IMG/VR virus record: IMGVR_UViG_2654587746_000003
Span: 1-13,415 of that record
Reading direction: 5' to 3' (one strand)
Source of the DNA: a virus
Lineage: Duplodnaviria > Heunggongvirae > Uroviricota > Caudoviricetes
DNA length: 13,415 bases
Below the pieces are notes generated by a model. The model worked only from the letters and a program-made list of their open reading frames with translations, was not told the DNA's origin and made no database searches. The position numbers and the translations under genes are program-made. Shown one piece after another: positions 1-13,415 of the stretch; the first letter of the stretch is position 1; each line of letters starts with the position of its first letter.

Positions 1-290
1 GTGTTGCATTGACAGATTGAATCTACAGTAGCCTTTTTTAATATTTCATTTTCCATTTCAATACGTTGTAGCTTTTTCCTGAGCTCACGGATTTCAATTT
101 GTTCCGGGGTAATGGGGGAGGCTTTTGGTGTTTTTCCCTGCCGCTCATCACGTAATTGTTTCACCCATCGCGTCATTGTGGAAAGGCCGACATCCATAGC
201 GCTGGCTGCATCTGCCACGGTGTAATTCTGGTCAACGACCAGTTGAGCGGATTCGCGTTTAAACTCTGCGCTGAAATTTCTTTTTTTCAT
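1..290 (-). CDS. IS3-family transposase OrfA (helix-turn-helix / leucine-zipper protein), partial; C-terminus lies outside window
   Basis: Reverse-strand translation from ATG (complement of 288-290) gives [88 protein letters not shown]..., which I recognise as the IS911/IS3-group OrfA N-terminus. Not in the ORF track because it runs off the window edge. Confidence 0.8.
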
Positions 291-362
291 TATGGCACCT
301 GTGTTGTTCTGAGGTGAGCATATCACCTCTGTTCAGGTGGCCAAATTCAGTAAACCACTTCA
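1..362 (-). mobile_element. IS3-family (IS911-like) insertion sequence, terminal part only; element continues beyond window start
   Basis: Minus-strand orfA starts at 290. Upstream of it the element ends at 355-362 (CCACTTCA on + strand, i.e. 5'-TGAAGTGG on the IS strand), the TG...CA terminus typical of IS3-family inverted repeats. Exact boundary is +/- a few bp from memory of the IS911 end. Confidence 0.75.
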
Positions 363-676
363 GAGGGAAACGTTCAAAAGCAACCGCCGGGAAAATGAAG
401 GCTGAAGGGCAGAAAAAAGGTTATCCGGACATGAGTCTCGATAAAGCATGCGGTATTTATCACGGCATGCGAATTGAGCTTAAAGAACCAAATGGTAAAG
501 CCCCGACGAAAGAGCAGATCGCCTGGATGCGCAGGCTTAGAGAGGAAGGTTACTACGTCGTTCTTGCGTATGGTGCAGAACAAGCGATAACCGCCATCCT
601 GGAATACATAAGCCTTAAAAAGGGTGAGGCTATTGAGCATGTATTGAACGGCGACAAGTGGTTGTATGCTGCTTAA
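363..676 (+). CDS. VRR-NUC domain nuclease (PD-(D/E)xK fold), apparently 5'-truncated by the IS insertion; possibly a pseudogene
   Basis: Frame continuous with ORF 314..676, but 314-362 is IS terminal repeat, so the GTG at 314 is not a real start. The remaining protein has GYPDM...IELK (PD-ExK core) and a conserved VRR-NUC C-terminal half (PTKEQIAWMRRLREEGYYVVLAYGAEQAI). The usual ~30-40 aa N-terminal segment is missing. First in-frame ATG is 395, with a weak RBS. Confidence 0.6.
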
Positions 677-732
677 AATAATAAATTAATTAGTGCATAT
701 GTGCTCTTTGATATAGCGCACATTAACATCGG

Positions 733-898
733 GAGAATAATCGTGTCATTCAAGGCTAATTATGAATCGCTGGCATCGATCATGCCGCGTAATGAACAGG
801 AAGCAGATGCTGTAGTGGACCCGGTAATCGCTGAAATGAATGCTCGCCTGGAGGCTGAATTTGCAGCTGAGAATGAACATACCACCCAGGGCGACTAG
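733..898 (+). CDS. hypothetical small acidic protein (54 aa)
   Basis: GTG at 733 preceded by GGGAGA (721-726). Frame is that of ORF 701..898. No recognisable domain. Overlaps the next gene by about 26 nt. Confidence 0.3.
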
Positions 899-1502
899 GA
901 CTGTTTTTTGTGTCGGTAGCGGTCCGTCACTCACTCGTGAGGACTGTGCTGCTATAGAAAAAACTGGCTGTTCAATCATCGCGGTTAACAATTCCTGGCA
1001 GATGTTCGATGACATTTATGCCTTATACGCCGGTGATTTGTCATGGTGGAAGCAATACGGATCCACCATACCGGGAGGGAGATTCCGCAAAGTGACAGCC
1101 AACCTGGCGGCGGCGAAATCATTTTCGTTGGAGTACAGGCGATATTGTGGACCGGCGGAAGGGGTAAATAGCGGCGCGCAGGCTATCAGTCTGGCTGCTG
1201 AATCAGGGGCTGAAGTAGTGGTATTAGTCGGCTATGACTGTTCTCTGCAAAACGGCCTTCATTGGCATGGCGCGCACCCTCAAGCCCTACGGAATCCAAC
1301 GCAGGTGTCTATTTCAAAATGGCAACAGCAGTTCCTGGATACCCGCAAAAAACACGCAGATTTACATATTTTGAATGCAAGTAGGAGCAGTGCAATTCAA
1401 TGTTTCCCAAGAATAAATTTAGAGGCAGTGATCGCGTTATTATCGTCGGCAGTGGCCCAAGCGCCGCAAACTTTGTTGCGCCGCGCGGAGTGCCGATTAT
1501 AG
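873..1502 (+). CDS. DUF115 / GT42 (CstII-, Maf-like) Rossmann-fold protein, putative glycosyl- or nucleotidyl-transferase, paralog A
   Basis: N-terminal VFCVGSGPSL (GxGPS loop), IIAVNNSW, then VNSGAQAISLAAESGAEVVVLVGYD. This matches the motif order of CstII-type sialyltransferases and DUF115 proteins (IAGNGPSL ... ITSGVYMCAVAIALGY..YLSGID). Start taken at ATG 873 (MNIPP...); ATG 840 is the alternative. Confidence 0.55.
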   Translation: MNIPPRATRTVFCVGSGPSLTREDCAAIEKTGCSIIAVNNSWQMFDDIYALYAGDLSWWKQYGSTIPGGRFRKVTANLAAAKSFSLEYRRYCGPAEGVNSGAQAISLAAESGAEVVVLVGYDCSLQNGLHWHGAHPQALRNPTQVSISKWQQQFLDTRKKHADLHILNASRSSAIQCFPRINLEAVIALLSSAVAQAPQTLLRRAECRL

Positions 1503-2026
1503 CGGTCAATGGGGCCATCGACTGGCTTAACCGCGCTTCTTATTTTTTCACCCTTGATCCATCGCCAGACAATATGCGGCGCGTTGGTCGTGGCCGCCGT
1601 CGCCGTGGTGTTTGTTATTGCATGGCGCTACCCGATGTTAAAGAACGTGAGGTCAGAGACGGCGTTCTGTGCTTCCGTCGTGTGGCTGAGCGCGGCACGG
1701 AGCCAAAAAATACGAATTCTCCCGAGTGGTGGGCGTGGCGCTGGTCCGCACATTTCGGCCTTTGCGAAGATGAGAATGAAATTGCCAGCGGCAATAGTGC
1801 ATATGGTGCTCTGAACCTGGCTTTCCATATCGGATTCAAACATGTAGCCCTGGTGGGCGTTGACGCTACGCAAGAACCACGCGTTCATTCCGGCGGCACG
1901 CCAAAAAATCTAAGTCACCTGCCTTTGTTATTCCAGTCTGCGCGTGAACAGATTGACGTTGTTTCATGCGGGAAAATGGGAGGTATTCCGCAGATGACTC
2001 TTAAAGAATGGCTGAAGAATACATGA
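1400..2026 (+). CDS. DUF115 / GT42-like Rossmann-fold protein, paralog B
   Basis: [25 protein letters not shown], and [24 protein letters not shown] give the same motif order as paralog A. AGGAG at 1383-1387. Overlaps paralog A by 103 nt out of frame. Stop TGA 2024-2026 overlaps the start of the next gene. Confidence 0.6.
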
Positions 2027-2700
2027 TGGCACCCACAATTTATCACCGTATCGACGGTACCAAATACAGGAATGTCTGGGTTGTTGGTGATCTGCATGGT
2101 TGCTACACCAGACTGATGTCCGAACTCCATCGTGTGGATTTTGACCCGGCGCAGGATTTACTGATATCGGTCGGCGACCTTATCGATCGCGGTACTGAAA
2201 ATGTCGAATGTCTGGAACTATTGCAGATGCCCTGGTTCAGGGCAGTGATGGGGAACCATGAGCGGCTGATGATTGATGCGTTAAGTCCAGATGGCAACGT
2301 GAATAACTGGCTAATGAATGGCGGACAATGGTTCTTCATGCTGGACACTGATCAGGAAATATTAGCCTGGGCGCTGGTGGAGCTGGTAAAGCGTCTGCCC
2401 TATATCATTGAGTTGAACACCGGGCAAGAAACTATCGTTATAGCCCATGCCGACTATCCGGATAATGAATACCAATTCGGTAAGGAGGTACCGCTTTTCA
2501 ACGTTGTCTGGGCGCGCGAGCGTATCAGTGATTCGATGGATGATATTGGTGGCGAAATTTCGGGCGCAGATCGTTTTATCTTTGGTCACACTCCGGTGAA
2601 AAGCCCGAAGACATTCTGGAATCAGCAGTATATCGACACTGGTGCCGTATTTTGCGGAAACCTGACATTGATGAAAGTGAAAGGTGATGGTGCAGCATGA
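2023..2700 (+). CDS. Ser/Thr protein phosphatase, calcineurin-like metallophosphoesterase (lambda PPase / PrpA-PrpB family)
   Basis: Motifs GDLHG, GDLIDRG and GNHE in the canonical order. N-terminus [22 protein letters not shown] aligns with lambda phosphatase as I remember it. Start ATG 2023 or 2026 (ATGATG overlapping the upstream stop). P1 also encodes a phosphatase (ppp), but I cannot confirm orthology. Confidence 0.85.
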
Positions 2701-3398
2701 AGATTGCTTTAGTTTTTCGCTCTGGTGGTGACTATAACGCTTCCGATGTGCAGTGGCTGGTTAATCAACTGCCAAAAGGCTATGAAATTATTTGCCTGAC
2801 AGACCTGAAGCGTTTACATGTACCTGGCGTCAAAGTTGTCCCATTGATCAACCAGTGGCAAAAGTGCCGTGGCTGGTGGGCGAAAATCGAGTTGTTCCGA
2901 CCGGATATAACCGATGATCTGTTCTATCTGGATTTGGACACGGTTATTGCCGGTGATATACGCCCAATCCTAGAGCATCCACCAACCAGCTTCACCATGC
3001 TTAGGGATTTTTACCATCCACAATATCGTGGCAGCGGTGCCCTGTGGATACCAAATAGTGTTAAAGCGCATATCTGGAGTTCATTCTGGCAAGATCCGGA
3101 AGGTTGGATTTCTCGTTGTGTCACTACTGAGTGCTGGGGTGACCAGGGGTTCTTACGAAAGGTTATGGGCGATGATACACCAGCATTTCAGGATCTGTAT
3201 CCAGGATGGTTTGTAAGTTACAAGGCCGATGTTGTGGAACCTGGTTCAAAATATGCGAGCGCGCGTTACTCCAGGGGGAATGGGGCATTACCAAAAGACT
3301 GCCGAATAATCTTTTTCCACGGCAAACCGCGACCTCGCGAAGTGTCAGAGGATTGGCTTCCCCTTATCAGCTCATTTTTTGAGCGAGAATCAGAATAA
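2697..3398 (+). CDS. GT8-like (GT-A fold, DxD) glycosyltransferase, putative
   Basis: ATGA overlap with the phosphatase stop. [29 protein letters not shown] resembles the GT8 signature (K..L...L.....YLDxDxxV.GDI). Later DQGFL and FFHGKPRP resemble the GT8 DQD..N and H.G..KPW motifs. Motif-level only. Confidence 0.5.
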
Positions 3399-3399
3399 T

Positions 3400-3416
3400 A
3401 TTGCTCTAATAATTCC
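3400..3416 (+). promoter_or_regulatory. P1 C1-repressor operator-like site overlapping a sigma70-like promoter
   Basis: ATTGCTCTAATAATTCC matches the remembered C1 operator consensus ATTGCTCTAATAAATTT at 14/17. TTGCTC (3401-3406), 17-bp spacer, TAAAAC (3424-3429) gives promoter-like spacing. Confidence 0.55.
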
Positions 3417-3447
3417 ATATTTTTAAAACGTGATGTACACTCATCAC

Positions 3448-3464
3448 ATTTTTTATTAGAGCAA
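3448..3464 (-). promoter_or_regulatory. second C1-operator-like site, inverted orientation
   Basis: Reverse complement of 3448-3464 is ATTGCTCTAATAAAAAA (14/17 to consensus). Forms a 13-bp inverted repeat with the 3400 site. Lies between the putative start site and the RBS (AAGGTG, 3470-3475) of the 3480 gene. Confidence 0.5.
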
Positions 3465-3479
3465 TCTACAAGGTGCACT

Positions 3480-3698
3480 ATGTGGCCATTCCGACGGAAA
3501 TATCACTACTGGCTGATCGCCTTTGTTACGCCGACCGGCGGTATCAGGCATGTAATCACCAGGTATCGCAACAAGAGACTCACCTTAGCCAGAATTTTAC
3601 AGGCTGCCATAGGTGAGGGACTGGATACAAATCGCGTAGTCCTTCCACCTTCATACTTAGGAAAAATGACCGAAGCACAAGCTAATACGGAACTTTGA
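3480..3698 (+). CDS. hypothetical protein (72 aa)
   Basis: ATG 3480 with AAGGTG RBS. Stop TGA 3696-3698 is 1 nt from ATG 3700 of the next gene (coupling). No recognisable domain. Confidence 0.45.
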   Translation: MWPFRRKYHYWLIAFVTPTGGIRHVITRYRNKRLTLARILQAAIGEGLDTNRVVLPPSYLGKMTEAQANTEL

Positions 3699-3699
3699 A

Positions 3700-4962
3700 A
3701 TGAGCACTTCAGCACAAAACCAATCAATCGAAAATGTATCTATCCCTGACGTCCTGAATGCCGGTATCCCAGCCATTATCCAGAACATCCGGGCCGCGCA
3801 ACGCCGCGTTAGTTGTGATGACCTCACAGCGCGTTTTTTTGATAATGCGGTTCAGTCAGCGGAGATGCTTCACGCACAGCTTATTGATGTTTATAACGCA
3901 GAAGCTGATAGCCATAACTCCCTGGTAGATGCAGCTGAAAATATGCAGTTGGATCTCGGTCTGAAGGGTAAAGAAATTGAAGAGCTTCAGCTACAAATTG
4001 AACATTTGAAACGCCAGCAACAGGACGCGATCGACGATGCGACGCATGACGCCAACCAGCGTGCTGATAATGCCGAACGTATAAGCATTGAGCTGGAAAC
4101 AAAACTCAATGAAATGACCGCGATGGTTGAACTGCGGAACTCACAGATTTCAACGCTAAAATCTCAATATAAAGAGATCATGAAACTTGATCCTTTTAAC
4201 CTTGAGAAACGCTATAACAAAGCTAAAAGCGAGCGACAGGAACTGCGTAAGCAGGTCGCCGACCTTAACCAACAGCTCAAAAAAACTATTAAAGATGCAA
4301 GCGAAGCGCGCGTGGCATTTGCTAATAAAAAAGCAGAGGTTACCGCGCTGGTTAATGAGAATGCCAAATTTGCGACGCTCAAGAAGGAAATGTATGGCAT
4401 TACTGAGCGCCGTTTCCCTGCAAGCAAACTTCATCCGACGTTAGGGCAAATCTCCTTCTTCCCGCGCCTCCTGGCTTATGGGATCTCATCGCCTAAAGAG
4501 TTCAATAACGAGCGTCCTTATATCGTTTCTAAGCTGGACTTTGCTTATCAGTTCTGCTGCGACATGGGCTATGCCATTGATATCCGAATCAACGAATGGT
4601 TGATGCCAAACTTCCAGCCGTTGGCAATTTTCCGCGAGTTCCAGCCGGAAGGTTGGGTAGAGTTCTTCCATGAATTGATCTGTAAAGAGATGGAAAGCCG
4701 CCGCCCGGAATTGGTCCGTCGAGTTGAGTGGGCGCAAGAGGTTATGTTGGCAGATGCAGAGCTGCCGTTCGAACCGGAATTCATTGATGATCTGGCAACT
4801 AAAGGGTTGCATACCCTGTTTGATGTGGTTACCCGCCGTCATGAGCAGTTGGTTGTCGAATTGGGTTTAGAGGAAACTGCGGCAAGAAGACTTCTCGATG
4901 TTTGCTATGCACGTAGCGAGGCATGGGAAAAAGAGAACGGCGGCACTATTTACGTTCGCTGA
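3700..4962 (+). CDS. hypothetical protein (420 aa): N-terminal ~230-aa predicted coiled coil, C-terminal globular domain of unknown function
   Basis: Long ORF. N-terminal half is heptad-like and charged (ELQLQIEHLKRQQQDAIDD...RQELRKQVADLNQQLKK). C-terminal half is aromatic and Cys-containing (ERPYIVSKLDFAYQFCCDMGYAIDIRINEW...). No motif I can assign. Confidence 0.7.
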   Translation: MSTSAQNQSIENVSIPDVLNAGIPAIIQNIRAAQRRVSCDDLTARFFDNAVQSAEMLHAQLIDVYNAEADSHNSLVDAAENMQLDLGLKGKEIEELQLQIEHLKRQQQDAIDDATHDANQRADNAERISIELETKLNEMTAMVELRNSQISTLKSQYKEIMKLDPFNLEKRYNKAKSERQELRKQVADLNQQLKKTIKDASEARVAFANKKAEVTALVNENAKFATLKKEMYGITERRFPASKLHPTLGQISFFPRLLAYGISSPKEFNNERPYIVSKLDFAYQFCCDMGYAIDIRINEWLMPNFQPLAIFREFQPEGWVEFFHELICKEMESRRPELVRRVEWAQEVMLADAELPFEPEFIDDLATKGLHTLFDVVTRRHEQLVVELGLEETAARRLLDVCYARSEAWEKENGGTIYVR

Positions 4963-4981
4963 TAGTTACAGTGTCACTTTT

Positions 4982-5017
4982 AATGCTGGTGGAGTGCTCC
5001 CACCAGCATTTTTTTCG
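4982..5017 (+). terminator. rho-independent terminator
   Basis: AATGCTGGTGGAG (4982-4994), short loop, CTCCCACCAGCATT (4997-5010), then TTTTTTT (5010-5016); 20 nt after the 420-aa stop. Confidence 0.8.
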
Positions 5018-5034
5018 TCCAATGAGGAGGGCAT

Positions 5035-5541
5035 TTGAGTATTTTCAATAAACACGCACACCAGGAACGTCCGTACATCGTCATAGTAGATATTGATGGG
5101 ACGATATCAGAGGCAACGGAAGACAGGCTGCATTTACTTCCACCACCTGGCAAAGGTGCATTAACAGAGCACTGGAACGAGTTTAACCTTGCCTGTGACA
5201 CTGATGCTCCCATCACTCCAGTTATTGATATGGTGCGCCAGTTGTCCGGCATTTACACCCTCTGGTTTGTAACCGGGCGCTGTGAGATAGCCAGGGATAA
5301 AACACGAGCCTGGTTGCGTAAGCACGTAACAAATGGGGCTGAGCCTTTGCTATCTATGCGTCCTGCCACCGATGACAGAAATGACGGTCCAGCAAAGATT
5401 GATCTCCTGAAGAAAATTGGTCTAAGTAAAATTGCGTTCGCGCTGGAAGATAAGATTGAAGTGGCGCGTGTTTTCAGGAGTCACGGCGTACTTACGTTAA
5501 TGGTCAGGGAGTATGAAAACGCGCTTCTCCATCAACAATAA
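5035..5541 (+). CDS. HAD-superfamily phosphatase (DxDGT motif I), nucleotidase / polynucleotide 3'-phosphatase-like
   Basis: TTG 5035 preceded by GAGGAGG (5024-5030). IVIVDIDGTIS is HAD motif I; a later WFVTGR is motif II-like. Exact start uncertain. Confidence 0.65.
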   Translation: MSIFNKHAHQERPYIVIVDIDGTISEATEDRLHLLPPPGKGALTEHWNEFNLACDTDAPITPVIDMVRQLSGIYTLWFVTGRCEIARDKTRAWLRKHVTNGAEPLLSMRPATDDRNDGPAKIDLLKKIGLSKIAFALEDKIEVARVFRSHGVLTLMVREYENALLHQQ

Positions 5542-5571
5542 TTACTCTAATAAATCTTGATTTTTAAAACA
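5541..5571 (+). promoter_or_regulatory. C1-operator-like site plus promoter-like -35/-10
   Basis: ATTACTCTAATAAATCT (5541-5557) is 15/17 to the C1 consensus. TTACTC, 17-bp spacer, TAAAAC (5565-5570) has the same architecture as the 3400 element, including the shared ATTTTTAAAAC. Confidence 0.5.
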
Positions 5572-5639
5572 GAGAAAATGAAAATAAAAACATGCCGCAA
5601 GGCGCGGCATGTATCCAATCAATCTCAGGAGCTGAAAAT

Positions 5640-5726
5640 ATGAACACGGCATTCAAAATCATTATGGCCGCGATCTATTTCTGGCTGTTCTCTATCACTT
5701 TTGGCAGCATTGTCGCGCATGGGTAA
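5640..5726 (+). CDS. small hydrophobic peptide (28 aa, one predicted transmembrane helix), not in ORF track
   Basis: AGGAG (5627-5631), 8-nt spacer, ATG 5640. Translation MNTAFKIIMAAIYFWLFSITFGSIVAHG, stop TAA 5724-5726. Confidence 0.45.
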   Translation: MNTAFKIIMAAIYFWLFSITFGSIVAHG

Positions 5727-5805
5727 GGGGAGTATATTAGCCATTTGGAACCCCACGGTCTCTTGCGGGTTTAATTAAGAACCCGCAAGAAAAATACGAA
5801 TTGGG

Positions 5806-8800
5806 CTATATTTTTCCGCCTACGCCTTTAAACTTCTCAATAAACGAGACGATTTTCTGGAAAACTGCCTGTTTTTTCGTTTTATATTGCGGATTCAACG
5901 GACTAAGTTTTGGTAATGTTTCGTTTAATTCTGTGCCATTTTCGGTGGCGTATTCGCGTTTTAAAGACATGCGAATATAGCGTTTTGCTGCATCTTCATT
6001 GAGATTTTCTTCTTTTATCAATGCTTCTGCTTCACGTTGCTGTTCGCGTTGAGCAAACGTAAAGAATGCCTCAATGATACTGGCTTTGTCTGGTAAATCA
6101 TCCAGGTTCGTTTGCTGAATAAAATCGACCACCAGGCCCTCTTTCGCCCGGTTCCCCAGGCTTGAACGAATTAAGCGTTTGACCTCTTCGATCATTTCGC
6201 CCTTGCCTTTATTTTGTCTGTTGTGTTCGAAAATCAGTCCAAGGATATAATCCAGGTTTATTTCCTGAGACTTCAGCAAATCGACCTCAAAAACTACGTC
6301 ATCCCAGTCAGTGGTTGATTTCTCTTTTTTCTCAGCTTCTTTCTCACGGCGCTGCCAGTCGCGAATATCGTTATAGGCAGAACGATAATCCTGAATCTTG
6401 CGATCAGCAGGGAGACGAATTGTTTGCAATTCAGCGAACTTTTCATTATCCACATAATGTTCTGCTTTGAATTTTTCTACCGCAACAGGATCGCTAAGAT
6501 CGATTTGTTGCAGGGCTTTTAGCGTGGCAAATTCATCATAGTTTTGCAGGATGTTCTCGGCACGCAGGTATTCGCCAAACAGTTTAACGAAGTCTTTCTT
6601 CTCTTTTTCACTTTCAATACTGGTAGGGTCAGGGAACCGTTGTTCCAGTTCTGAAACTACTGTCATGAAGCCGCGTTTAGCTTCACCAGTGGCAGCATCA
6701 GTAAAGCCTTCCATATACTCTGCATAACTCTTTTCTAAAACCACATTTTTGGTATTTTTGTCACCAAACAGCGTTATGGCATCAATGGTTGAGCGTTCCA
6801 GATCCCGGAACGTGACAATATTACCGAAGGTTTTAGTCGCGTCATAAATGCGGTTGGTGCGGGAGAATGCCTGCATCAGGCCGTGAAAACGCAAGTTTTT
6901 ATCGACGAATAGCGTGTTTAATGTTGGAGCATCGAAGCCGGTTAAAAACATCCCCACGACAATTAGCAGATCGATATCCTGATTTTTAACCCGCTGGGCT
7001 AAATCACGATAGTAGTTCTGAAAACCGTTACTGTCGGTGCTAAAGTTAGTTTTAAAATGGCTGTTATATTCACGAATTGCAGCGTCCAGAAACTCTTTAG
7101 CACTGCTGTCCATTGCGCTGGTATCAAAAGTTTCATCGGAAATTTCACCAATGGCATTTTGTTCTTCATTGGCGGCAAAGGAGAAGATTGTCGCAATACG
7201 CAGCGGTTTATAGGTAGCCGATTTATTAGCGGCTTCCTCTTGTAACCGTTTAAACGTCGCGTAATAGGCTTTCGCGGCATCCACGCTGCTCACTGCCAGC
7301 ATGGCATTAAAACCTTTGGAGCCAGGGAAAGTACGGTGGGTTTTCTGGCGGAAGTTATTCAGGATATATTGCGTAATTTCCTGAATACGCATGGGATGAA
7401 GGAACGCCTGCTGATTTTCAGCCGCACTCAGTTTTTTCTCGTCGGTTTCTGTCTCTAAAGACTTAAATTGTGGCCGCACATCGTTATAGTCCACCTTGAA
7501 TTTGAGCACTTTTTCATCACGAATCGCATCGGTAATCACATACGAATGCAATTCACGACCAAATACGCTGGCGGTCGTTTCTGAGCCTAAAGCGTTTTCC
7601 GGGAAAATAGGTGTGCCGGTAAAACCAAACTGATAATAGCGTTTGAATTTCTTCTTCAGGTTTTTCTGCGCTTCTCCAAACTGGCTGCGGTGGCATTCAT
7701 CAAATATAAACACCACTTGCTGATTGTATACAGGCAGATCGCTTTCTGCTTTCATCAGGTTATTGAGTTTCTGAATAGTAGTGACGATAATTTTGTTATC
7801 GTCCTTATCCAGATTTCGTTTAAGACCTGCGGTATTTTCCGAGCCGTTGACGCTGTCTGGCGAAAAACGCTGATATTCCTTCATGGTCTGGTAATCGAGG
7901 TCTTTCCTGTCGACCACAAAGAAGACTTTATCAATAAAGTCCAGCTCTGTTGCCAGACGCGCGGCTTTAAAGCTGGTGAGGGTTTTACCAGAACCGGTAG
8001 TGTGCCAGATATACCCACCGCTTTCCGGTTTTGACCAGTTCTTCGCTGTAAAGGAACTCTTAATTTTCCACAGAATGCGCTCGGTGGCGGCAATCTGGTA
8101 CGGTCGCATTACCAGTAGTGTCTGACTGCTGTCAAAAACGCTGTAGTTCACCAGAACATTAAGCAGAGTATGTTTCTGGAAAAAGGTAGCGGTAAAGTCT
8201 TTGAGGTCTTTAATCAGCGTGTTGTCTGATTTAGCCCAGTTCATGGTGAAGTCAAAACTGTTTTTATCGCGCTTTGTGGTGTTGGCAAAATAACGGGTAT
8301 CAGTGCCGTTGGAAATGACGAACAGCTGCAGATACTTAAACAGGGAATTTTCGCTGTTAAAACTCTCTTTACTGTAACGATGTATCTGGTTGAAAGCCTC
8401 ACGAATCGCCACCCCGCGTTTTTTTAGTTCGATTTGCACCAGCGGTAAACCATTAACCAGGATCGTGACGTCATAACGGTTAGCATGAGAACCCGTCTGT
8501 TCAAACTGCTGGATAATCTGCACCTTATTGCGCATGAGATTCTTTTTATCTATCAAATAGATGTTCTCAAGACGCTCGTCATCAAAAATAAAGTCGCAAA
8601 TATAGTCGATATGGATTTTACGGGTCTTATCCAGAATGCCATCGCTCGGGTTATCCAGATACTGCTCCGTGAAACGCCGCCACTCGCTGTCATTAAACAC
8701 CACACCATTGAGGTTCTGAAGCTGTTCCCGAACATTGGCTAGCATCGCCGACTGTGATTTTACGGATATAAATTCATAGCCCTGATTCCGCAGGTCCTGA

Positions 8801-8922
8801 ATCAGTTCACGTTCCAGGTCCGATTCGCTCTGATAGCTGTCGCCTGTTTGCTCAGCTTTGATGTACTTATCAAGAACGATAAAGTTATTGGATTCAGCAA
8901 TGGTGTGTGTCTGATGAGTCAT
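5806..8922 (-). CDS. hsdR: Type I restriction enzyme R subunit (HsdR), Type IC family size (1038 aa)
   Basis: Walker A GSGKT, DEAD-box-like FDECH, helicase motifs ([12 protein letters not shown]). The 1038-aa length and the partner genes match the EcoR124/EcoprrI (IC) family. RBS AAGGA upstream of ATG. Confidence 0.93.
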
Positions 8923-9043
8923 AGCGCATCCTTTGTGCCGTCTGGCAAGGGCCGGAAGGGAGTTAAGGGCGACTTCCAGCGCGTAAAAAATAGTCTATAT
9001 ACTGACCGGGTGTTAAGGTGGCCCGGTCGGTAGCAATGGTCAA

Positions 9044-10245
<1,202 letters not shown>

Positions 10246-10249
<4 letters not shown>

Positions 10250-11808
10250 GATTGCGCCTTGTCACCTTCAATCTTTGCCACAATTGCATCAATATCTTTA
10301 CGCAACTGGTCGATTTTGCTGACCGTGGTTTTCAGCTCAGCATTCAGCTCAGCAATATCGATAATTTCGCGGTTATCTTTCGCTTCCACATAGCTGCTCA
10401 CCGACAGGTTATAGTCATTAGCAACAACGGCCTCAAACGCGACAGATTTCGCCAGATGAGCAACATTTTCTTTGCTGGCAAATACCTGCATAATCTGGTT
10501 GATATGGGCATCGGTCAGGATATTGTTGTTAGTCTCTTTTTTGAACAGTTCGCTGGCGTCAATAAACTGAACTTTGGTATCCGTTTTATGTTTAGACAGC
10601 ACCAGAATATTTACGGCAATGGTGGTGCCAAAGAACAGGTTCGGTGCGAGTGAAATCACGGTTTCGACATAGTTATTGTCGACCAGATACTGACGGATTT
10701 TCTGCTCTGCGCCGCCACGGTAAAAAATACCCGGGAAGCAGACAATCGCAGCACGACCTTTGGCCGAAAGATAGTTCAGCGCATGTAGTACAAACGCAAA
10801 GTCAGCTTTGGATTTGGGGGCCAGAACGCCAGCCGGGGCAAAACGTTCATCGTTAATCAGCGTCGGGTCATCGCTGCCAATCCATTTCACCGAATACGGT
10901 GGATTAGATACGATGGCGTCAAACGGTTTTTCATCTCTGAAGTGCGGCTCAGTCAGTGTATTACCCAGCTTGATATCAAACTTGTCGTAGTTGATATTGT
11001 GCAAAAACATGTTCATACGCGCCAGGTTATAGGTCGTATGGTTGATTTCCTGACCGAAAAAGCCTTCTTCGATGATGTGGTTATCAAACTGTTTTTTCGC
11101 CTGCAACAACAGTGAGCCGGAACCCGCTGCCGGGTCGTAGATTTTGTTAACGCTGGTCTGCCCGTGCATAGCCAGTTGTGCAATCAGCTTGGAGACGTGC
11201 TGCGGTGTAAAGAACTCACCGCCTGACTTACCGGCATTTGCGGCATAGTTAGAAATCAGGAACTCATAGGCATCACCGAACAGGTCAATCTGATGTTCGT
11301 TGAAGTCACCAAGTTTTAACCCTTCAACCCCTTTCAGAACCGCTGCCAGGCGGGCATTTTTATCTTTAACGGTGTTACCCAGGCGGTTACTGGTGGTATC
11401 GAAATCAGCAAACAAACCTTTGATGTCAGCTTCTGAAGGGTAACCGTAAGCAGAACTTTCGATAGCAACGAAGATGCTGTTTAAATCTGCATTCAGTCTG
11501 TCATTGGTCTTTGCTTTCGCAGCTACGTTGCAGAAAAGCTGGCTTGGGTAGATGAAGTAGCCTTTGGTTTTGATGGCATCGTCTTTAATGTCATCAGTAA
11601 TTACGCTGTCATCCAGTTTCGCATAACAGATACTGTCATCACCGGCTTCAATATAGCTGGAAAAATTTTCGCTGATAAAACGGTAGAAAAGTGCGCCCAG
11701 AACGTATTGCTTAAAATCCCATCCATCGACCGAACCTCTGACATCGTTGGCAATTTGCCAGATTTGACGATGAAGCTCTGCACGTTGTTGAATACTTGTC
11801 ATTTTCAT
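10246..11808 (-). CDS. hsdM: Type I DNA methyltransferase M subunit (HsdM), N6-adenine, 520 aa
   Basis: AdoMet motif [11 protein letters not shown] and catalytic motif IV NPPY. Length fits Type IC HsdM. A possible promoter -10 TAGAAT (complement of 11843-11848) lies upstream. Confidence 0.93.
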
Positions 11809-11939
11809 CCACTTATTTCAGGCTTATGTAATTGGCGGTGATTCTACAGCAACTTGGATGCTTTAGCAGTTCGGACATTAGGCTACGAATGACCTGCCTA
11901 GAGGTTTGTTAAGCCGCAAAGTGCTGGTGCTTTATGCCT

Positions 11940-11984
11940 GTGAAGTTTATAATTGTGTACACATAACGAGTACACGAGGTGTTT
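11940..11984 (+). promoter_or_regulatory. phd-doc promoter/operator region
   Basis: TATAAT at 11948-11953, followed by palindromic GTGTACAC (11955-11962) and GAGTACAC (11968-11975), consistent with the Phd/Doc autoregulatory operator of P1. RBS GAGGTG before ATG 11985. Confidence 0.55.
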
Positions 11985-12206
11985 ATGCAATCCATTAACT
12001 TCCGTACCGCGCGTGGCAACCTTTCTGAAGTGCTCAACAATGTTGAAGCCGGGGAAGAGGTTGAAATCACCCGCAGAGGCCGTGAGCCAGCAGTAATTGT
12101 CAGCAAGGCTACTTTCGAAGCCTACAAAAAAGCGGCGCTGGATGCTGAATTTGCATCCCTGTTTGACACCCTGGACTCCACCAACAAGGAACTGGTTAAC
12201 CGATAA
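11985..12206 (+). CDS. phd: antitoxin Phd (prevent host death), Phd/YefM family
   Basis: [73 protein letters not shown], recognised as P1 Phd. Stop TAA shares its last A with the doc ATG (TAATG). Confidence 0.92.
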
Positions 12207-12586
12207 TGAGGCATATATCACCGGAAGAACTTATTGCGCTTCATGATGCGAATATAAACCGCTACGGCGGCCTGCCGGGCATGTCAGATCCGGGTAGGGC
12301 AGAGGCCATTATCGGGAGAGTTCAGGCCAGAGTTGCCTACGAAGAGATCACCGACCTTTTCGAAGTCTCCGCCACCTACCTGGTGGCTACAGCGAGAGGG
12401 CATATATTCAATGATGCCAATAAGCGTACCGCGCTAAACAGTGCGCTGTTATTTCTACGCCGTAACGGGGTGCAGGTATTTGATTCACCTGAACTGGCAG
12501 ACCTTACCGTAGGAGCTGCGACCGGAGAGATATCTGTATCTTCTGTCGCCGACACGTTACGTAGATTGTATGGTTCTGCGGAGTAG
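12206..12586 (+). CDS. doc: toxin Doc (death on curing), Fic/Doc-family kinase
   Basis: 126 aa, [22 protein letters not shown]...[11 protein letters not shown] (Fic/Doc core motif). Position and overlap with phd as in P1. Confidence 0.92.
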
Positions 12587-12590
12587 ATTA

Positions 12591-12770
12591 ATGGCACGTA
12601 AATACAACAAATTGTCCCGTGAAGCGTTAAAGATGCTTCTTGATGGTGTGAGCCGCAGCGAGGTAAAGCAATACCTGGTTGGTAAGCAAATTGGTGCCAG
12701 GACCGCTATTGCTGTGTTATGCCGTCAGGAAATGGTTGTGCTTAAACAGAGAATGCCGGGCAGCAGATAA
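12591..12770 (+). CDS. small basic protein (59 aa) in the position of P1 pdcB (post-doc)
   Basis: ATG 12591 with GGAG 8 nt upstream, immediately after doc. Identity inferred from synteny only. Confidence 0.45.
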   Translation: MARKYNKLSREALKMLLDGVSRSEVKQYLVGKQIGARTAIAVLCRQEMVVLKQRMPGSR

Positions 12771-12797
12771 AGCCCAATCAGTGATGAAAGGTGTGAT

Positions 12798-13331
12798 GTG
12801 AAAGCCGTAATTACTCCCTTTGTACAAAAAGAGCTTGGCGTCGCCACATTCAAAGTGGATCAGGAAGTCAGAAAGCTGGTGGAGGCTGGCCGTAAATTTA
12901 TTATGGAGCCGGTGCCGCGTGAGTTAATCGAGCACATGGACGACGGCCTCGTTGTTTCCGAGCAAACTATGGCAACAAATGAGGCGTTGCAGCCGTTTTT
13001 TAACAGCGATGAACTGTTTCGCCGTATTGGTGGAATTGACGCGCTGGTGGCGTGGTTGCGCAGGAAAGAGGGGCAATGCCAGGCCGCAGATCGTAGCTGG
13101 TGTGACAACCATATTGTCCACGCAGAACGAGACAATAGCGCGGTGTTGTTGTGCTGGCATCACGATAACCATTACCGGATGCGTGGTTTTAATGAGCTGA
13201 AAGAAACGCTGCATAATAATCGCGTTAACTGGATACTGGATGTCGCCCGTCAGGAAATGGGGCTTTCAGATGGCCATGATCTAAGGAAGGTGCGAATAAG
13301 CAGGTCATTTCTTCCCAAGTTGACTCGCTGA
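12798..13331 (+). CDS. Cys/His-rich protein (177 aa) in the position of P1 lpa (late promoter activator); putative zinc-binding regulator
   Basis: GTG 12798 with AAAGG RBS. Contains CDNHIVHAE...LLCWHHDNH. Assignment is by gene order phd-doc-pdcB-lpa, not sequence recall. Confidence 0.5.
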
Positions 13332-13382
13332 TTAAAATTTCGCGGATCTGGGCCGATTTTTTTCCCGCAAACACATCGAATC

Positions 13383-13405
13383 AGCCTATTTAGGCTATTT
13401 TTTCC
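13383..13405 (+). terminator. weak hairpin plus T-tract, possible terminator
   Basis: AGCCTA-TT-TAGGCT followed by ATTTTTT. Stem is short, so low confidence. Confidence 0.25.
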
Positions 13406-13415
13406 ACCATTTCTG

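Follow-up and report, generated by a model that had tools for sequence, protein, structure and literature searches.

The C1-controlled pmgR-pmgS-pap segment of a P1-type phage-plasmid and a possible early role of PmgS in phage DNA transactions

The pmgR-pmgS-pap segment and its repressor control

The closest described counterpart of the locus reported here is the pmgR-pmgS-pap segment of phage P1, whose genes, operators and promoter were already contained in the 2004 P1 annotation and whose knockouts were published in 2022. In the curated P1 record (AF234172), OpmgRa is described as an operator that 'controls expression of pmgR and pmgS', and no late promoter is annotated before pmgR. The record of phage P7 (AF503408) names the same genes shtA, shtB and pap and annotates the C1 sites as well. 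Gonzales et al. 2022 (PMC9024508) deleted 29 P1 genes in frame, pmgR, pmgS and pap among them, and a comparative study of 77 P1-like elements counted pmgR and pmgS among 21 'extremely conserved' genes. Here we analysed this segment in a stretch of virus DNA of 13,415 nucleotides (IMG/VR record IMGVR_UViG_2654587746_000003, positions 1 to 13,415; hereafter the window), in which a preliminary description made from the letters alone had seen an undescribed early module, possibly for anti-restriction or host takeover. The module turned out to be the P1 segment, and our results suggest that PmgS, which carries a morphogenetic label in the databases, most likely has its role in DNA transactions of the phage, namely recombination, replication or the protection of ends, or else acts on a protein that takes part in these.

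When positions 3300-5800 were compared with phage genomes by megablast, 19 records matched with 97-99% identity over 97-100% of the query, including P1, P7, RCS47, SJ46, JL22 and phi456, and the matched features were pmgQ, pmgR, pmgS and pap. The predicted proteins differ from those of P1 by one residue in PmgR, two in PmgS and eight in Pap, and the regulatory stretch 3399-3479 differs by a single base at position 3448, just outside OpmgRb. OpmgRa, PpmgR, OpmgRb, pmgR, pmgS, pap and OpmgT are all annotated in AF234172 at exactly equivalent positions, and gene order, spacing, operators, terminator and start codons are shared with both P1 and P7. Based on the residue and base differences and the matching annotation, the segment is a catalogued part of phage P1, and near-identical sequence, gene order and C1 operators at equivalent coordinates identify its genes as orthologues of P1 pmgR, pmgS and pap. 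The module is therefore not undescribed, and the clear homology to a known P1 protein that had been named as speaking against a new function is present, in a trivial sense. We consider it highly probable that the best explanation of the region as a whole, including the protein roles proposed below, is that of a C1-repressed pmgR-pmgS-pap segment of a P1-type phage-plasmid. The features of the segment are as follows.

3400-3416, plus strand: C1 operator, P1 OpmgRa (former Op86a), ATTGCTCTAATAATTCC; operator consensus match and P1 annotation
3401-3429, plus strand: predicted sigma-70 promoter PpmgR, -35 TTGCTC at 3401-3406 and -10 TAAAAC at 3424-3429; transferred from AF234172
3449-3465, minus strand: C1 operator, P1 OpmgRb (former Op86b), ATTGCTCTAATAAAAAA on the minus strand; consensus match and P1 annotation
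3480-3698, plus strand: pmgR (P7 shtA), 72 amino acids, ATG start; open reading frame (ORF) table and PHROG 3177
3700-4962, plus strand: pmgS (P7 shtB), 420 amino acids, ATG start; ORF table and PHROG 1660
4982-5017, plus strand: intrinsic-terminator-like hairpin and run of seven T between pmgS and pap; top-ranked in the terminator scan
5035-5541, plus strand: pap, 168 amino acids, TTG start; ORF table and Pfam HAD_PNKP
5541-5557, plus strand: C1 operator, P1 OpmgT (former Op88), whose overlap with pap is the final base of the stop codon; consensus match and P1 annotation

The operators were searched in the whole 13.4-kb window with the 17-bp asymmetric P1 C1 consensus ATTGCTCTAATAAATTT, allowing at most three mismatches. 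Exactly three matches with 2-3 mismatches each were found, compared with 0.10 expected, and three were reached in none of 200 shuffles. The sites at 3400-3416 and 3449-3465 are mutually inverted, so that PpmgR is bracketed by both operators; an operator-flanked promoter before the gene pair had been proposed from the sequence, and the P1 record annotates exactly these sites as OpmgRa and OpmgRb. Judging from this arrangement, C1 would occupy the two inverted 17-bp operators around PpmgR in the prophage state, and pmgR and pmgS would be silent in lysogens and transcribed after C1 inactivation. Between the predicted PpmgR -10 and OpmgRb, a hairpin with a 6-bp stem (GTGATG/CATCAC) followed by a T-run lies at 3430-3447 on the plus strand. 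This hairpin is probably not an attenuator, since its left arm would coincide with the expected start of transcription or lie upstream of it. Its T-run is operator sequence. No RNA family was found in the window with Rfam.

The preliminary description had located the features of the segment correctly, from the ORFs and operators to the HAD match and the neighbouring genes. The pmgR stop codon (TGA, 3696-3698) is followed by the pmgS ATG at 3700, one nucleotide beyond, and the proposed coupling of the two genes is thus borne out. The strong intrinsic terminator proposed before the phosphatase gene corresponds to a predicted hairpin of 11 pairs (4982-5010), six of them G-C, with a 7-nucleotide loop followed by TTTTTTT, and it is kept in P1 with a single substitution in the loop. 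The phosphatase gene also has its own strong Shine-Dalgarno sequence, GAGGAGG, 5-6 nucleotides ahead of the pap TTG. Since no recognisable promoter was found between the terminator and this TTG, either in the P1 annotation or by the consensus scan, terminator read-through is the simplest assumption, and pap would probably be expressed in this way. A P1 late promoter ahead of pap was rejected: when compared with LPhot and LPpmgL, the stretch matches only six of nine -22-box positions and has a poor -10.

Two divergent P1-like loci were informative about the extent of the unit. In a P1-like contig (L003) whose PmgS is 27% identical, the order pmgO-pmgP-pmgQ-pmgR-pmgS is kept and PmgR shows 36% identity, and in phage D6 pmgR and pmgS come after darB, ulx and pmgM. 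No pap follows pmgS in L003 or D6, so that the three genes do not form a conserved trio. Thus, of the three-gene unit that had been delineated, pmgR-pmgS stands as a conserved pair, while pap is not a constant member. Directly upstream of the pmgR homologue, L003 contains a perfect 15-bp inverted pair, AAGATACTAATTTAT, around a 17-bp spacer (9704-9750), and a related third site lies at 6354-6368. The layout of this pair is like that of P1 Op86a and Op86b, but the operator sequence is different, and it is probably the operator of that phage's own repressor.

Domain architecture and genomic context of PmgS

PmgS is an acidic protein of 420 amino acids with an isoelectric point (pI) of 5.2. In the AlphaFold model of the full-length protein, which has a predicted local distance difference test score (pLDDT) of 73, helices comprising residues 15-34, 41-160 and 168-232 precede a folded C-terminal part, in rough agreement with the coiled coil of about 230 residues that had been described. 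The layout consists of a helical N-terminal half (15-232), an alpha/beta domain (about 233-350) and a module resembling two helix-hairpin-helix motifs, (HhH)2, at about 351-412. The helix break 161-167 falls together with residues that are conserved in the family (K158, E159, L163, D164, P165 and L168); residues 163-165 form an LDP motif, and at least 90% of 50 family sequences have P165. The LDP break may be a fold-back apex of the rod.

The C-terminal part was modelled from 36 sequences with a pLDDT of 91.7 and a predicted template modelling score (pTM) of 0.85, and its end (about 351-412) is a five-helix module of the (HhH)2 type. Its structural matches are listed below, each with two values for which column headings are not given.

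RAD51C N-terminal domain: 8.2; 1.7
RAD51D: 8.0; 1.5
XRCC3: 7.0; 2.8
NusA acidic repeat: 6.7; 2.2
RpoA alpha C-terminal domain: 5.5; 2.3
SAM domains: 4.5-6.0; no second value

Weak profile matches of PmgS to RAD51, RpoA and NusA (E 0.04-0.3, sub-threshold) agree with these structural matches, and the 27%-identical homologue matches HHH_5 weakly (E <= 0.001). A Foldseek search of the C-terminal model against BFVD returned nothing below E = 0.1. The (HhH)2-like module resembles the N-terminal domain of RAD51 and its paralogues, the NusA acidic repeats AR1 and AR2 and the RpoA alpha C-terminal domain. Unlike in these proteins, the module of PmgS follows a rod of long helices and an alpha/beta domain that has no match, and PmgS contains no recombinase ATPase core, no NusA S1 or KH domains and no polymerase subunit. 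The check that had been proposed for the C-terminal domain pointed to an (HhH)2-like module and left the alpha/beta part without a structural match.

In the alpha/beta domain we see no catalytic signature, since its conserved residues (W, P, L, G and one R) are structural. A reading of this middle domain as a PD-(D/E)xK nuclease, raised by an AF1548 match, was rejected because the P1 clade does not conserve the acidic and basic residues that would be candidates. Searches of PmgS against Pfam, NCBIfam and PADLOC gave only sub-threshold coiled-coil matches (SMC, Rad50, LmuB and JetC). An SMC/Rad50-like identity was likewise discarded, as these matches are confined to the coiled coil with 10-19 bits compared with cut-offs of 300-1000, and no ATPase motif or domain was found.

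A word-indexed protein search with PmgS returned P1-like relatives down to 53% identity and one further homologue at 27%, and a scan of viral contigs with the P1-clade alignment found only near-identical P1-like contigs. When the C-terminal 195 residues were used in an exhaustive profile search, 99 cluster representatives were obtained at E <= 0.001, nearly all of which are 350-470 amino acids long with the matched domain at the C-terminus, that is, with the same architecture. The PmgS of the window matches PHROG 1660, 'PmgS-like head morphogenesis', at 1.9e-195, and 50 of 50 tested family members match it as well. Remote homologues keep a canonical KG[IFM]G hairpin. We found no relevant literature on PmgS-like or shtB proteins. 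How PmgS is divided into domains, how wide its family is and how consistently it stands in a recombination-linked early context outside P1-like phages, together with the lack of support for its label, go beyond the sources available to us.

We then examined 16 PmgS loci outside P1-like phages, which were located in part with a six-sequence alignment, and clustered the neighbouring ORFs and annotated the recurrent clusters. These loci are from Vibrio phage douglas 12A4, Aeromonas phages phiARM81mr and ST4, two metagenomic contigs, and prophages of Dickeya, Photobacterium, Brenneria, Symbiopectobacterium, Pectobacterium, Yersinia, Serratia, Citrobacter, Vibrio and Enterovibrio. The PmgS-like gene lies downstream of a CI-type repressor gene on the same strand in 11 of the 16 loci. 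It directly follows a YqaJ-type exonuclease gene in seven, an eighth having YqaJ about 1.9 kb upstream; RecT is encoded just upstream in seven loci and RdgC nearby in four. An MT-A70 DNA methyltransferase gene comes directly after the PmgS-like gene in three loci, and in phiARM81mr a DNA adenine methyltransferase gene is positioned one gene further downstream. An integrase gene is found downstream in most loci, and xis-int end the block in several. Structural genes are absent from the flanks of most loci, the exception being Aeromonas ST4 with the large terminase gene about 4 kb downstream. The genes just downstream of the PmgS-like genes in non-P1 phages fall in unrelated PHROGs, indicating that there is no hidden conserved partner downstream. 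The position after the repressor, by RecT and YqaJ and before xis-int is that of the accessory genes around exo-bet-gam in the early-left (PL) operon of lambda, and PmgS, like those genes, is not required for lytic growth under laboratory conditions. This likeness is positional only, as no resemblance of PmgS in sequence or fold to Gam, Kil, CIII, Ral or any other named lambda early-left protein was found.

These contexts bear on the label of PmgS as a morphogenetic protein, according to which pmgR-pmgS would be an assembly operon. The databases name PmgS and its relatives a head scaffolding protein (GenBank record of D6), a protein of 'sheath contraction' (P7) and a 'head morphogenesis' protein (PHROG 1660); a genuine assembly phenotype is known for pmgR, its partner upstream, and long coiled coils are frequent in scaffolding proteins. 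One member of the family alignment weakly matches a 'head scaffolding protein' PHROG and others match tape-measure PHROGs, which are typical coiled-coil cross-hits. However, the P1 pmgS deletion forms plaques normally (PMC9024508 Table S3) and pmgS was non-essential by CRISPR interference (CRISPRi; PMC10695390), and the full viability of the deletion largely refutes the assembly role. PmgS is mentioned neither in the main text nor in the virion table of PMC9024508, and the virion proteins that the accessible part of a 2026 cryo-electron microscopy study names do not include it. The promoter is an early, C1-controlled sigma-70 promoter with no annotated late promoter in front. The homologues in the 16 other phages stand in early operons with recombination and methylase genes, and PmgR homologues are absent from these phages. 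Based on the early-operon context, the promoter and the viable knockout, we regard a morphogenetic role of PmgS as very unlikely, an assembly operon as scarcely credible, and the 'head morphogenesis' label as unsupported.

A second possibility is that the C-terminal module docks on RNA polymerase or NusA and that PmgS modulates transcription by redirecting early transcription. The weak sequence matches to the NusA acidic repeats and the alpha C-terminal domain of RNA polymerase would fit such a role, and the module of the P1 clade is acidic, as are the NusA acidic repeats. In addition, three prophages (L089, L090 and L091) have a repressor-type gene on the same strand, 0.5-1.6 kb upstream, and the PmgS-like gene is the first of its transcription unit, the position of lambda N, in L090, L091 and Vibrio phage douglas 12A4. 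On the contrary, the fold is generic and SAM domains match it too, most family members keep the canonical KG[IFM]G hairpin that characterises HhH motifs which bind DNA, and no P1 phenotype suggests altered gene expression. We therefore hold this possibility to be quite improbable. Instead, we suggest that PmgS would be an accessory protein of the early phase, in which an elongated rod of helices with a conserved LDP break carries an alpha/beta domain of novel type and an (HhH)2 module for docking. This end may bind nucleic acid, although a protein is the more likely partner in the P1 clade.

PmgR, Pap and the question of anti-defence

PmgR is a basic protein of 72 amino acids (pI 10.6) with no match in Pfam, NCBIfam, PADLOC or the PDB. 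A hidden Markov model of PmgR homologues found no relative in any non-P1 locus examined, and since PmgR homologues are absent from the other PmgS-carrying phages, the pmgR-pmgS pairing appears specific to P1-like phages. In contrast to the pmgS deletion, the pmgR deletion of P1 is lethal and yields no infectious virions, and pmgR in trans restores plaques (PMC9024508). Electron microscopy of the lysate revealed unjoined tails and incomplete heads, while a packaging-defective pacA control gave proheads and free tails (PMC9024508). Because this control looks alike, we infer that it cannot be told from the pmgR phenotype whether joining or packaging is defective. PmgR was not seen in the virion with liquid chromatography-tandem mass spectrometry and 'cannot be conclusively determined to be part of the virion' (PMC9024508). 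The 2026 cryo-electron microscopy study assigns the connector to Prt/PmgC/gp7/gp24, and the virion proteins named in its accessible part, which also comprise those of the baseplate, include neither PmgR nor PmgS; a full-text search of that paper found no mention of PmgR. The phenotype of PmgR is thus one of assembly or packaging rather than anti-restriction, and PmgR may be a non-structural factor for packaging or head completion. The PmgR homologue of phage D6 (L086 5558-5857), which comprises 99 amino acids, ends in a hydrophobic, membrane-span-like tail, VMRLLSLLQWAIVPVFIAYLIYQ, that is lacking in P1 PmgR, and this predicted tail hints at an action of PmgR at the membrane in some phages.

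Pap matches Pfam HAD_PNKP with 44.1 bits (cut-off 27.6; E 3e-11), and motif I of the HAD family was read from its translation as VDIDGT, in which D19-I-D21-G-T23 corresponds to DxDxT. The HAD-like phosphatase that had been predicted is thereby confirmed at the level of a curated cut-off and a family motif. Pap also matches PHROGs 415 and 505, 'polynucleotide kinase', the latter at positions 156-292 of 295, which is the phosphatase part only, and it shows a weak match to Pnkp1 (4xrp). No P-loop kinase domain was found in Pap, which therefore does not belong to the bifunctional T4 Pnk type. With T4 PNKP and bacterial Pnkp1 it shares only the phosphatase family, having 168 amino acids, no kinase half and no ligase partner nearby. 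By its sequence, Pap is an HAD phosphatase that stands alone and is of the T4 PNKP type, and it would act as a 3'-phosphatase that heals 3'-phosphate ends of damaged nucleic acid. The P1 pap deletion plates normally (PMC9024508 Table S3), and pap was non-essential by CRISPRi (PMC10695390).

We then considered anti-defence, as the preliminary description had suggested anti-restriction for this module. The P1 pmgS and pap deletions showed 'normal restriction' on EcoA, EcoB and EcoK hosts (PMC9024508 Table S3), and both PmgS and Pap are dispensable for plaques and for protection against type IA and IB restriction. The anti-restriction idea consequently fails for these systems and the wider anti-defence idea is weakened, while the broader suggestion of an early phage function is favoured by the context of PmgS, which points to an early, non-structural role. 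What is left is that PmgS and/or Pap counter a host defence beyond type IA/IB, such as type IC restriction, the PrrC/RloC anticodon nucleases or SMC-like systems of the Lamassu/Wadjet kind. The expression is early and repressor-controlled, PmgS is acidic and elongated like several DNA-mimic inhibitors, and the region lies at a hot spot of hsd cassette insertion. In D6 and L003, pmgR-pmgS stand 1.5-5 kb downstream of the anti-restriction genes darB and, in D6, ulx within the same gene block. Pap belongs to the phosphatase family of T4 PNKP; T4 PNKP repairs tRNA cut by PrrC, and PrrC is genetically linked to type IC hsd loci. However, Pap is without the kinase half required for full tRNA healing, and no prrC lies between hsdS and hsdR in the window, where the gap is about 120 nucleotides. 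PADLOC gave only the low-scoring coiled-coil matches to LmuB and JetC, and no likeness of the segment proteins to known anti-restriction proteins (Dar, Ocr and ArdA) was found in Pfam, PHROGs, PADLOC, NCBIfam or the PDB. Considering also the normal plating and restriction of the deletions, we judge a role in counteracting such defences to be unlikely.

Based on these observations, we tentatively propose that PmgS represents an unrecognised class of early proteins of gamma-proteobacterial temperate phages, acting in recombination and replication or in the protection of DNA ends from nuclease or defence, and that PmgR is a non-virion factor of DNA maturation or packaging; this combined proposal is possible rather than probable. 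A function of PmgR in DNA maturation or packaging, and not in head-tail joining, would explain the likeness of its deletion to the pacA control. Several points weigh against the explanation given here for the region as a whole. First, the role of PmgS in DNA transactions is inferred from its neighbourhood and one small domain, and for its alpha/beta domain (about 233-350) neither the PDB nor BFVD gave a convincing match. Second, the hairpin of the module is degenerate in the P1 clade (LGL, YDL, HSL and CGV) and the module is strongly acidic with a net charge of -5 to -8, which argues for protein docking rather than direct DNA binding in P1. Third, seven of the 16 loci are fairly close kin, with 65-83% identity to P0148 (L088, L092-L095 and L097) or 51% (L096), and independent observations are therefore fewer than the raw counts; the linkage to RecT and exonuclease recurs, nevertheless, in Aeromonas and Enterovibrio members at 25-32% identity. 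Fourth, the CRISPRi knock-down survey (PMC10695390) missed the essentiality of pmgR, and PmgR could be a low-copy or flexible virion component that escaped both proteomics and cryo-electron microscopy. Finally, PpmgR was not listed by a stricter consensus promoter scan of the window, and it thus rests on the prediction in the P1 record rather than on mapping.

Surroundings of the segment and implications

The type I restriction-modification cassette and the toxin-antitoxin pair that had been noted beside the segment are both present. On the minus strand, a type IC-like hsdR-hsdS-hsdM cassette occupies 5806-11808, its HsdR containing SWI2/SNF2, T1R_D3 and EcoR124_C domains, and Phd and Doc are encoded beside it on the plus strand. 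While P1 contains pmgT through humD after Op88, the window contains this cassette on the opposite strand up to phd-doc. The flanks of the cassette are 5541-5800 and 11809-11978, and in the P1 record the flanks are 96-98% identical to the sequence beside the EcoDXXI and R124 hsd loci. When an 801-bp probe of the pap-hsdR junction was used, 250 plasmid records covered at least 80% of it. The interval from Op88 to phd is a recurrent cargo-exchange site of P1-like phage-plasmids.

Within this interval, just downstream of Op88 and of the predicted P1 pmgT promoters, a 28-codon ORF (5640-5726, plus strand) encodes a very hydrophobic peptide, MNTAFKIIMAAIYFWLFSITFGSIVAHG, and is preceded by the ribosome-binding site CAGGAG. 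It shows one substitution compared with P1, is unannotated in AF234172, has no NCBIfam match, and is kept although the hsd cassette replaces pmgT-humD. A hairpin at 5590-5612 before this ORF looks like a minus-strand terminator, plausibly that of hsdR.

Upstream of the segment, pmgM is disrupted by IS30 in this element, which is a further difference from P1. Positions 1-370 are an IS30 terminus, 100% identical to IS30 copies in many plasmids and inserted in pmgM, and only the C-terminal residues (about 105) of the PmgM remnant (98-676) are in frame. This remnant scores 22.9 bits against Pfam VRR-NUC (cut-off 23.8; E = 9e-5), and if the match is real, PmgM is unlikely to be morphogenetic. The genes pmgO, pmgP, ppp and pmgQ occupy 840-3398. 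PmgO and PmgP show sub-threshold matches to MptE-like Pfam families, their L003 homologues match PHROGs 4603 (alpha-2,3-sialyltransferase) and 2111, and PmgQ matches a glycosyltransferase PHROG. L003 keeps pmgO, pmgP and pmgQ with a CTP_transf_3 cytidylyltransferase gene nearby (7832-9653 and 12588-13352 of L003). From these matches, pmgO-pmgP-pmgQ looks like a sugar-transfer module rather than a set of 'putative morphogenetic' genes.

In conclusion, a repressor-controlled unit was recognised from raw sequence, yet it belongs to one of the best-known phages. Labels such as 'putative morphogenetic' and 'head morphogenesis' have spread through PHROGs and RefSeq. We suggest that PmgS is better treated as an early accessory protein tied to DNA transactions, which changes the experiments that are worthwhile. 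For PmgR, which is essential and not seen in the virion, the choice between packaging and head completion is one of the last gaps in the assembly pathway of P1.

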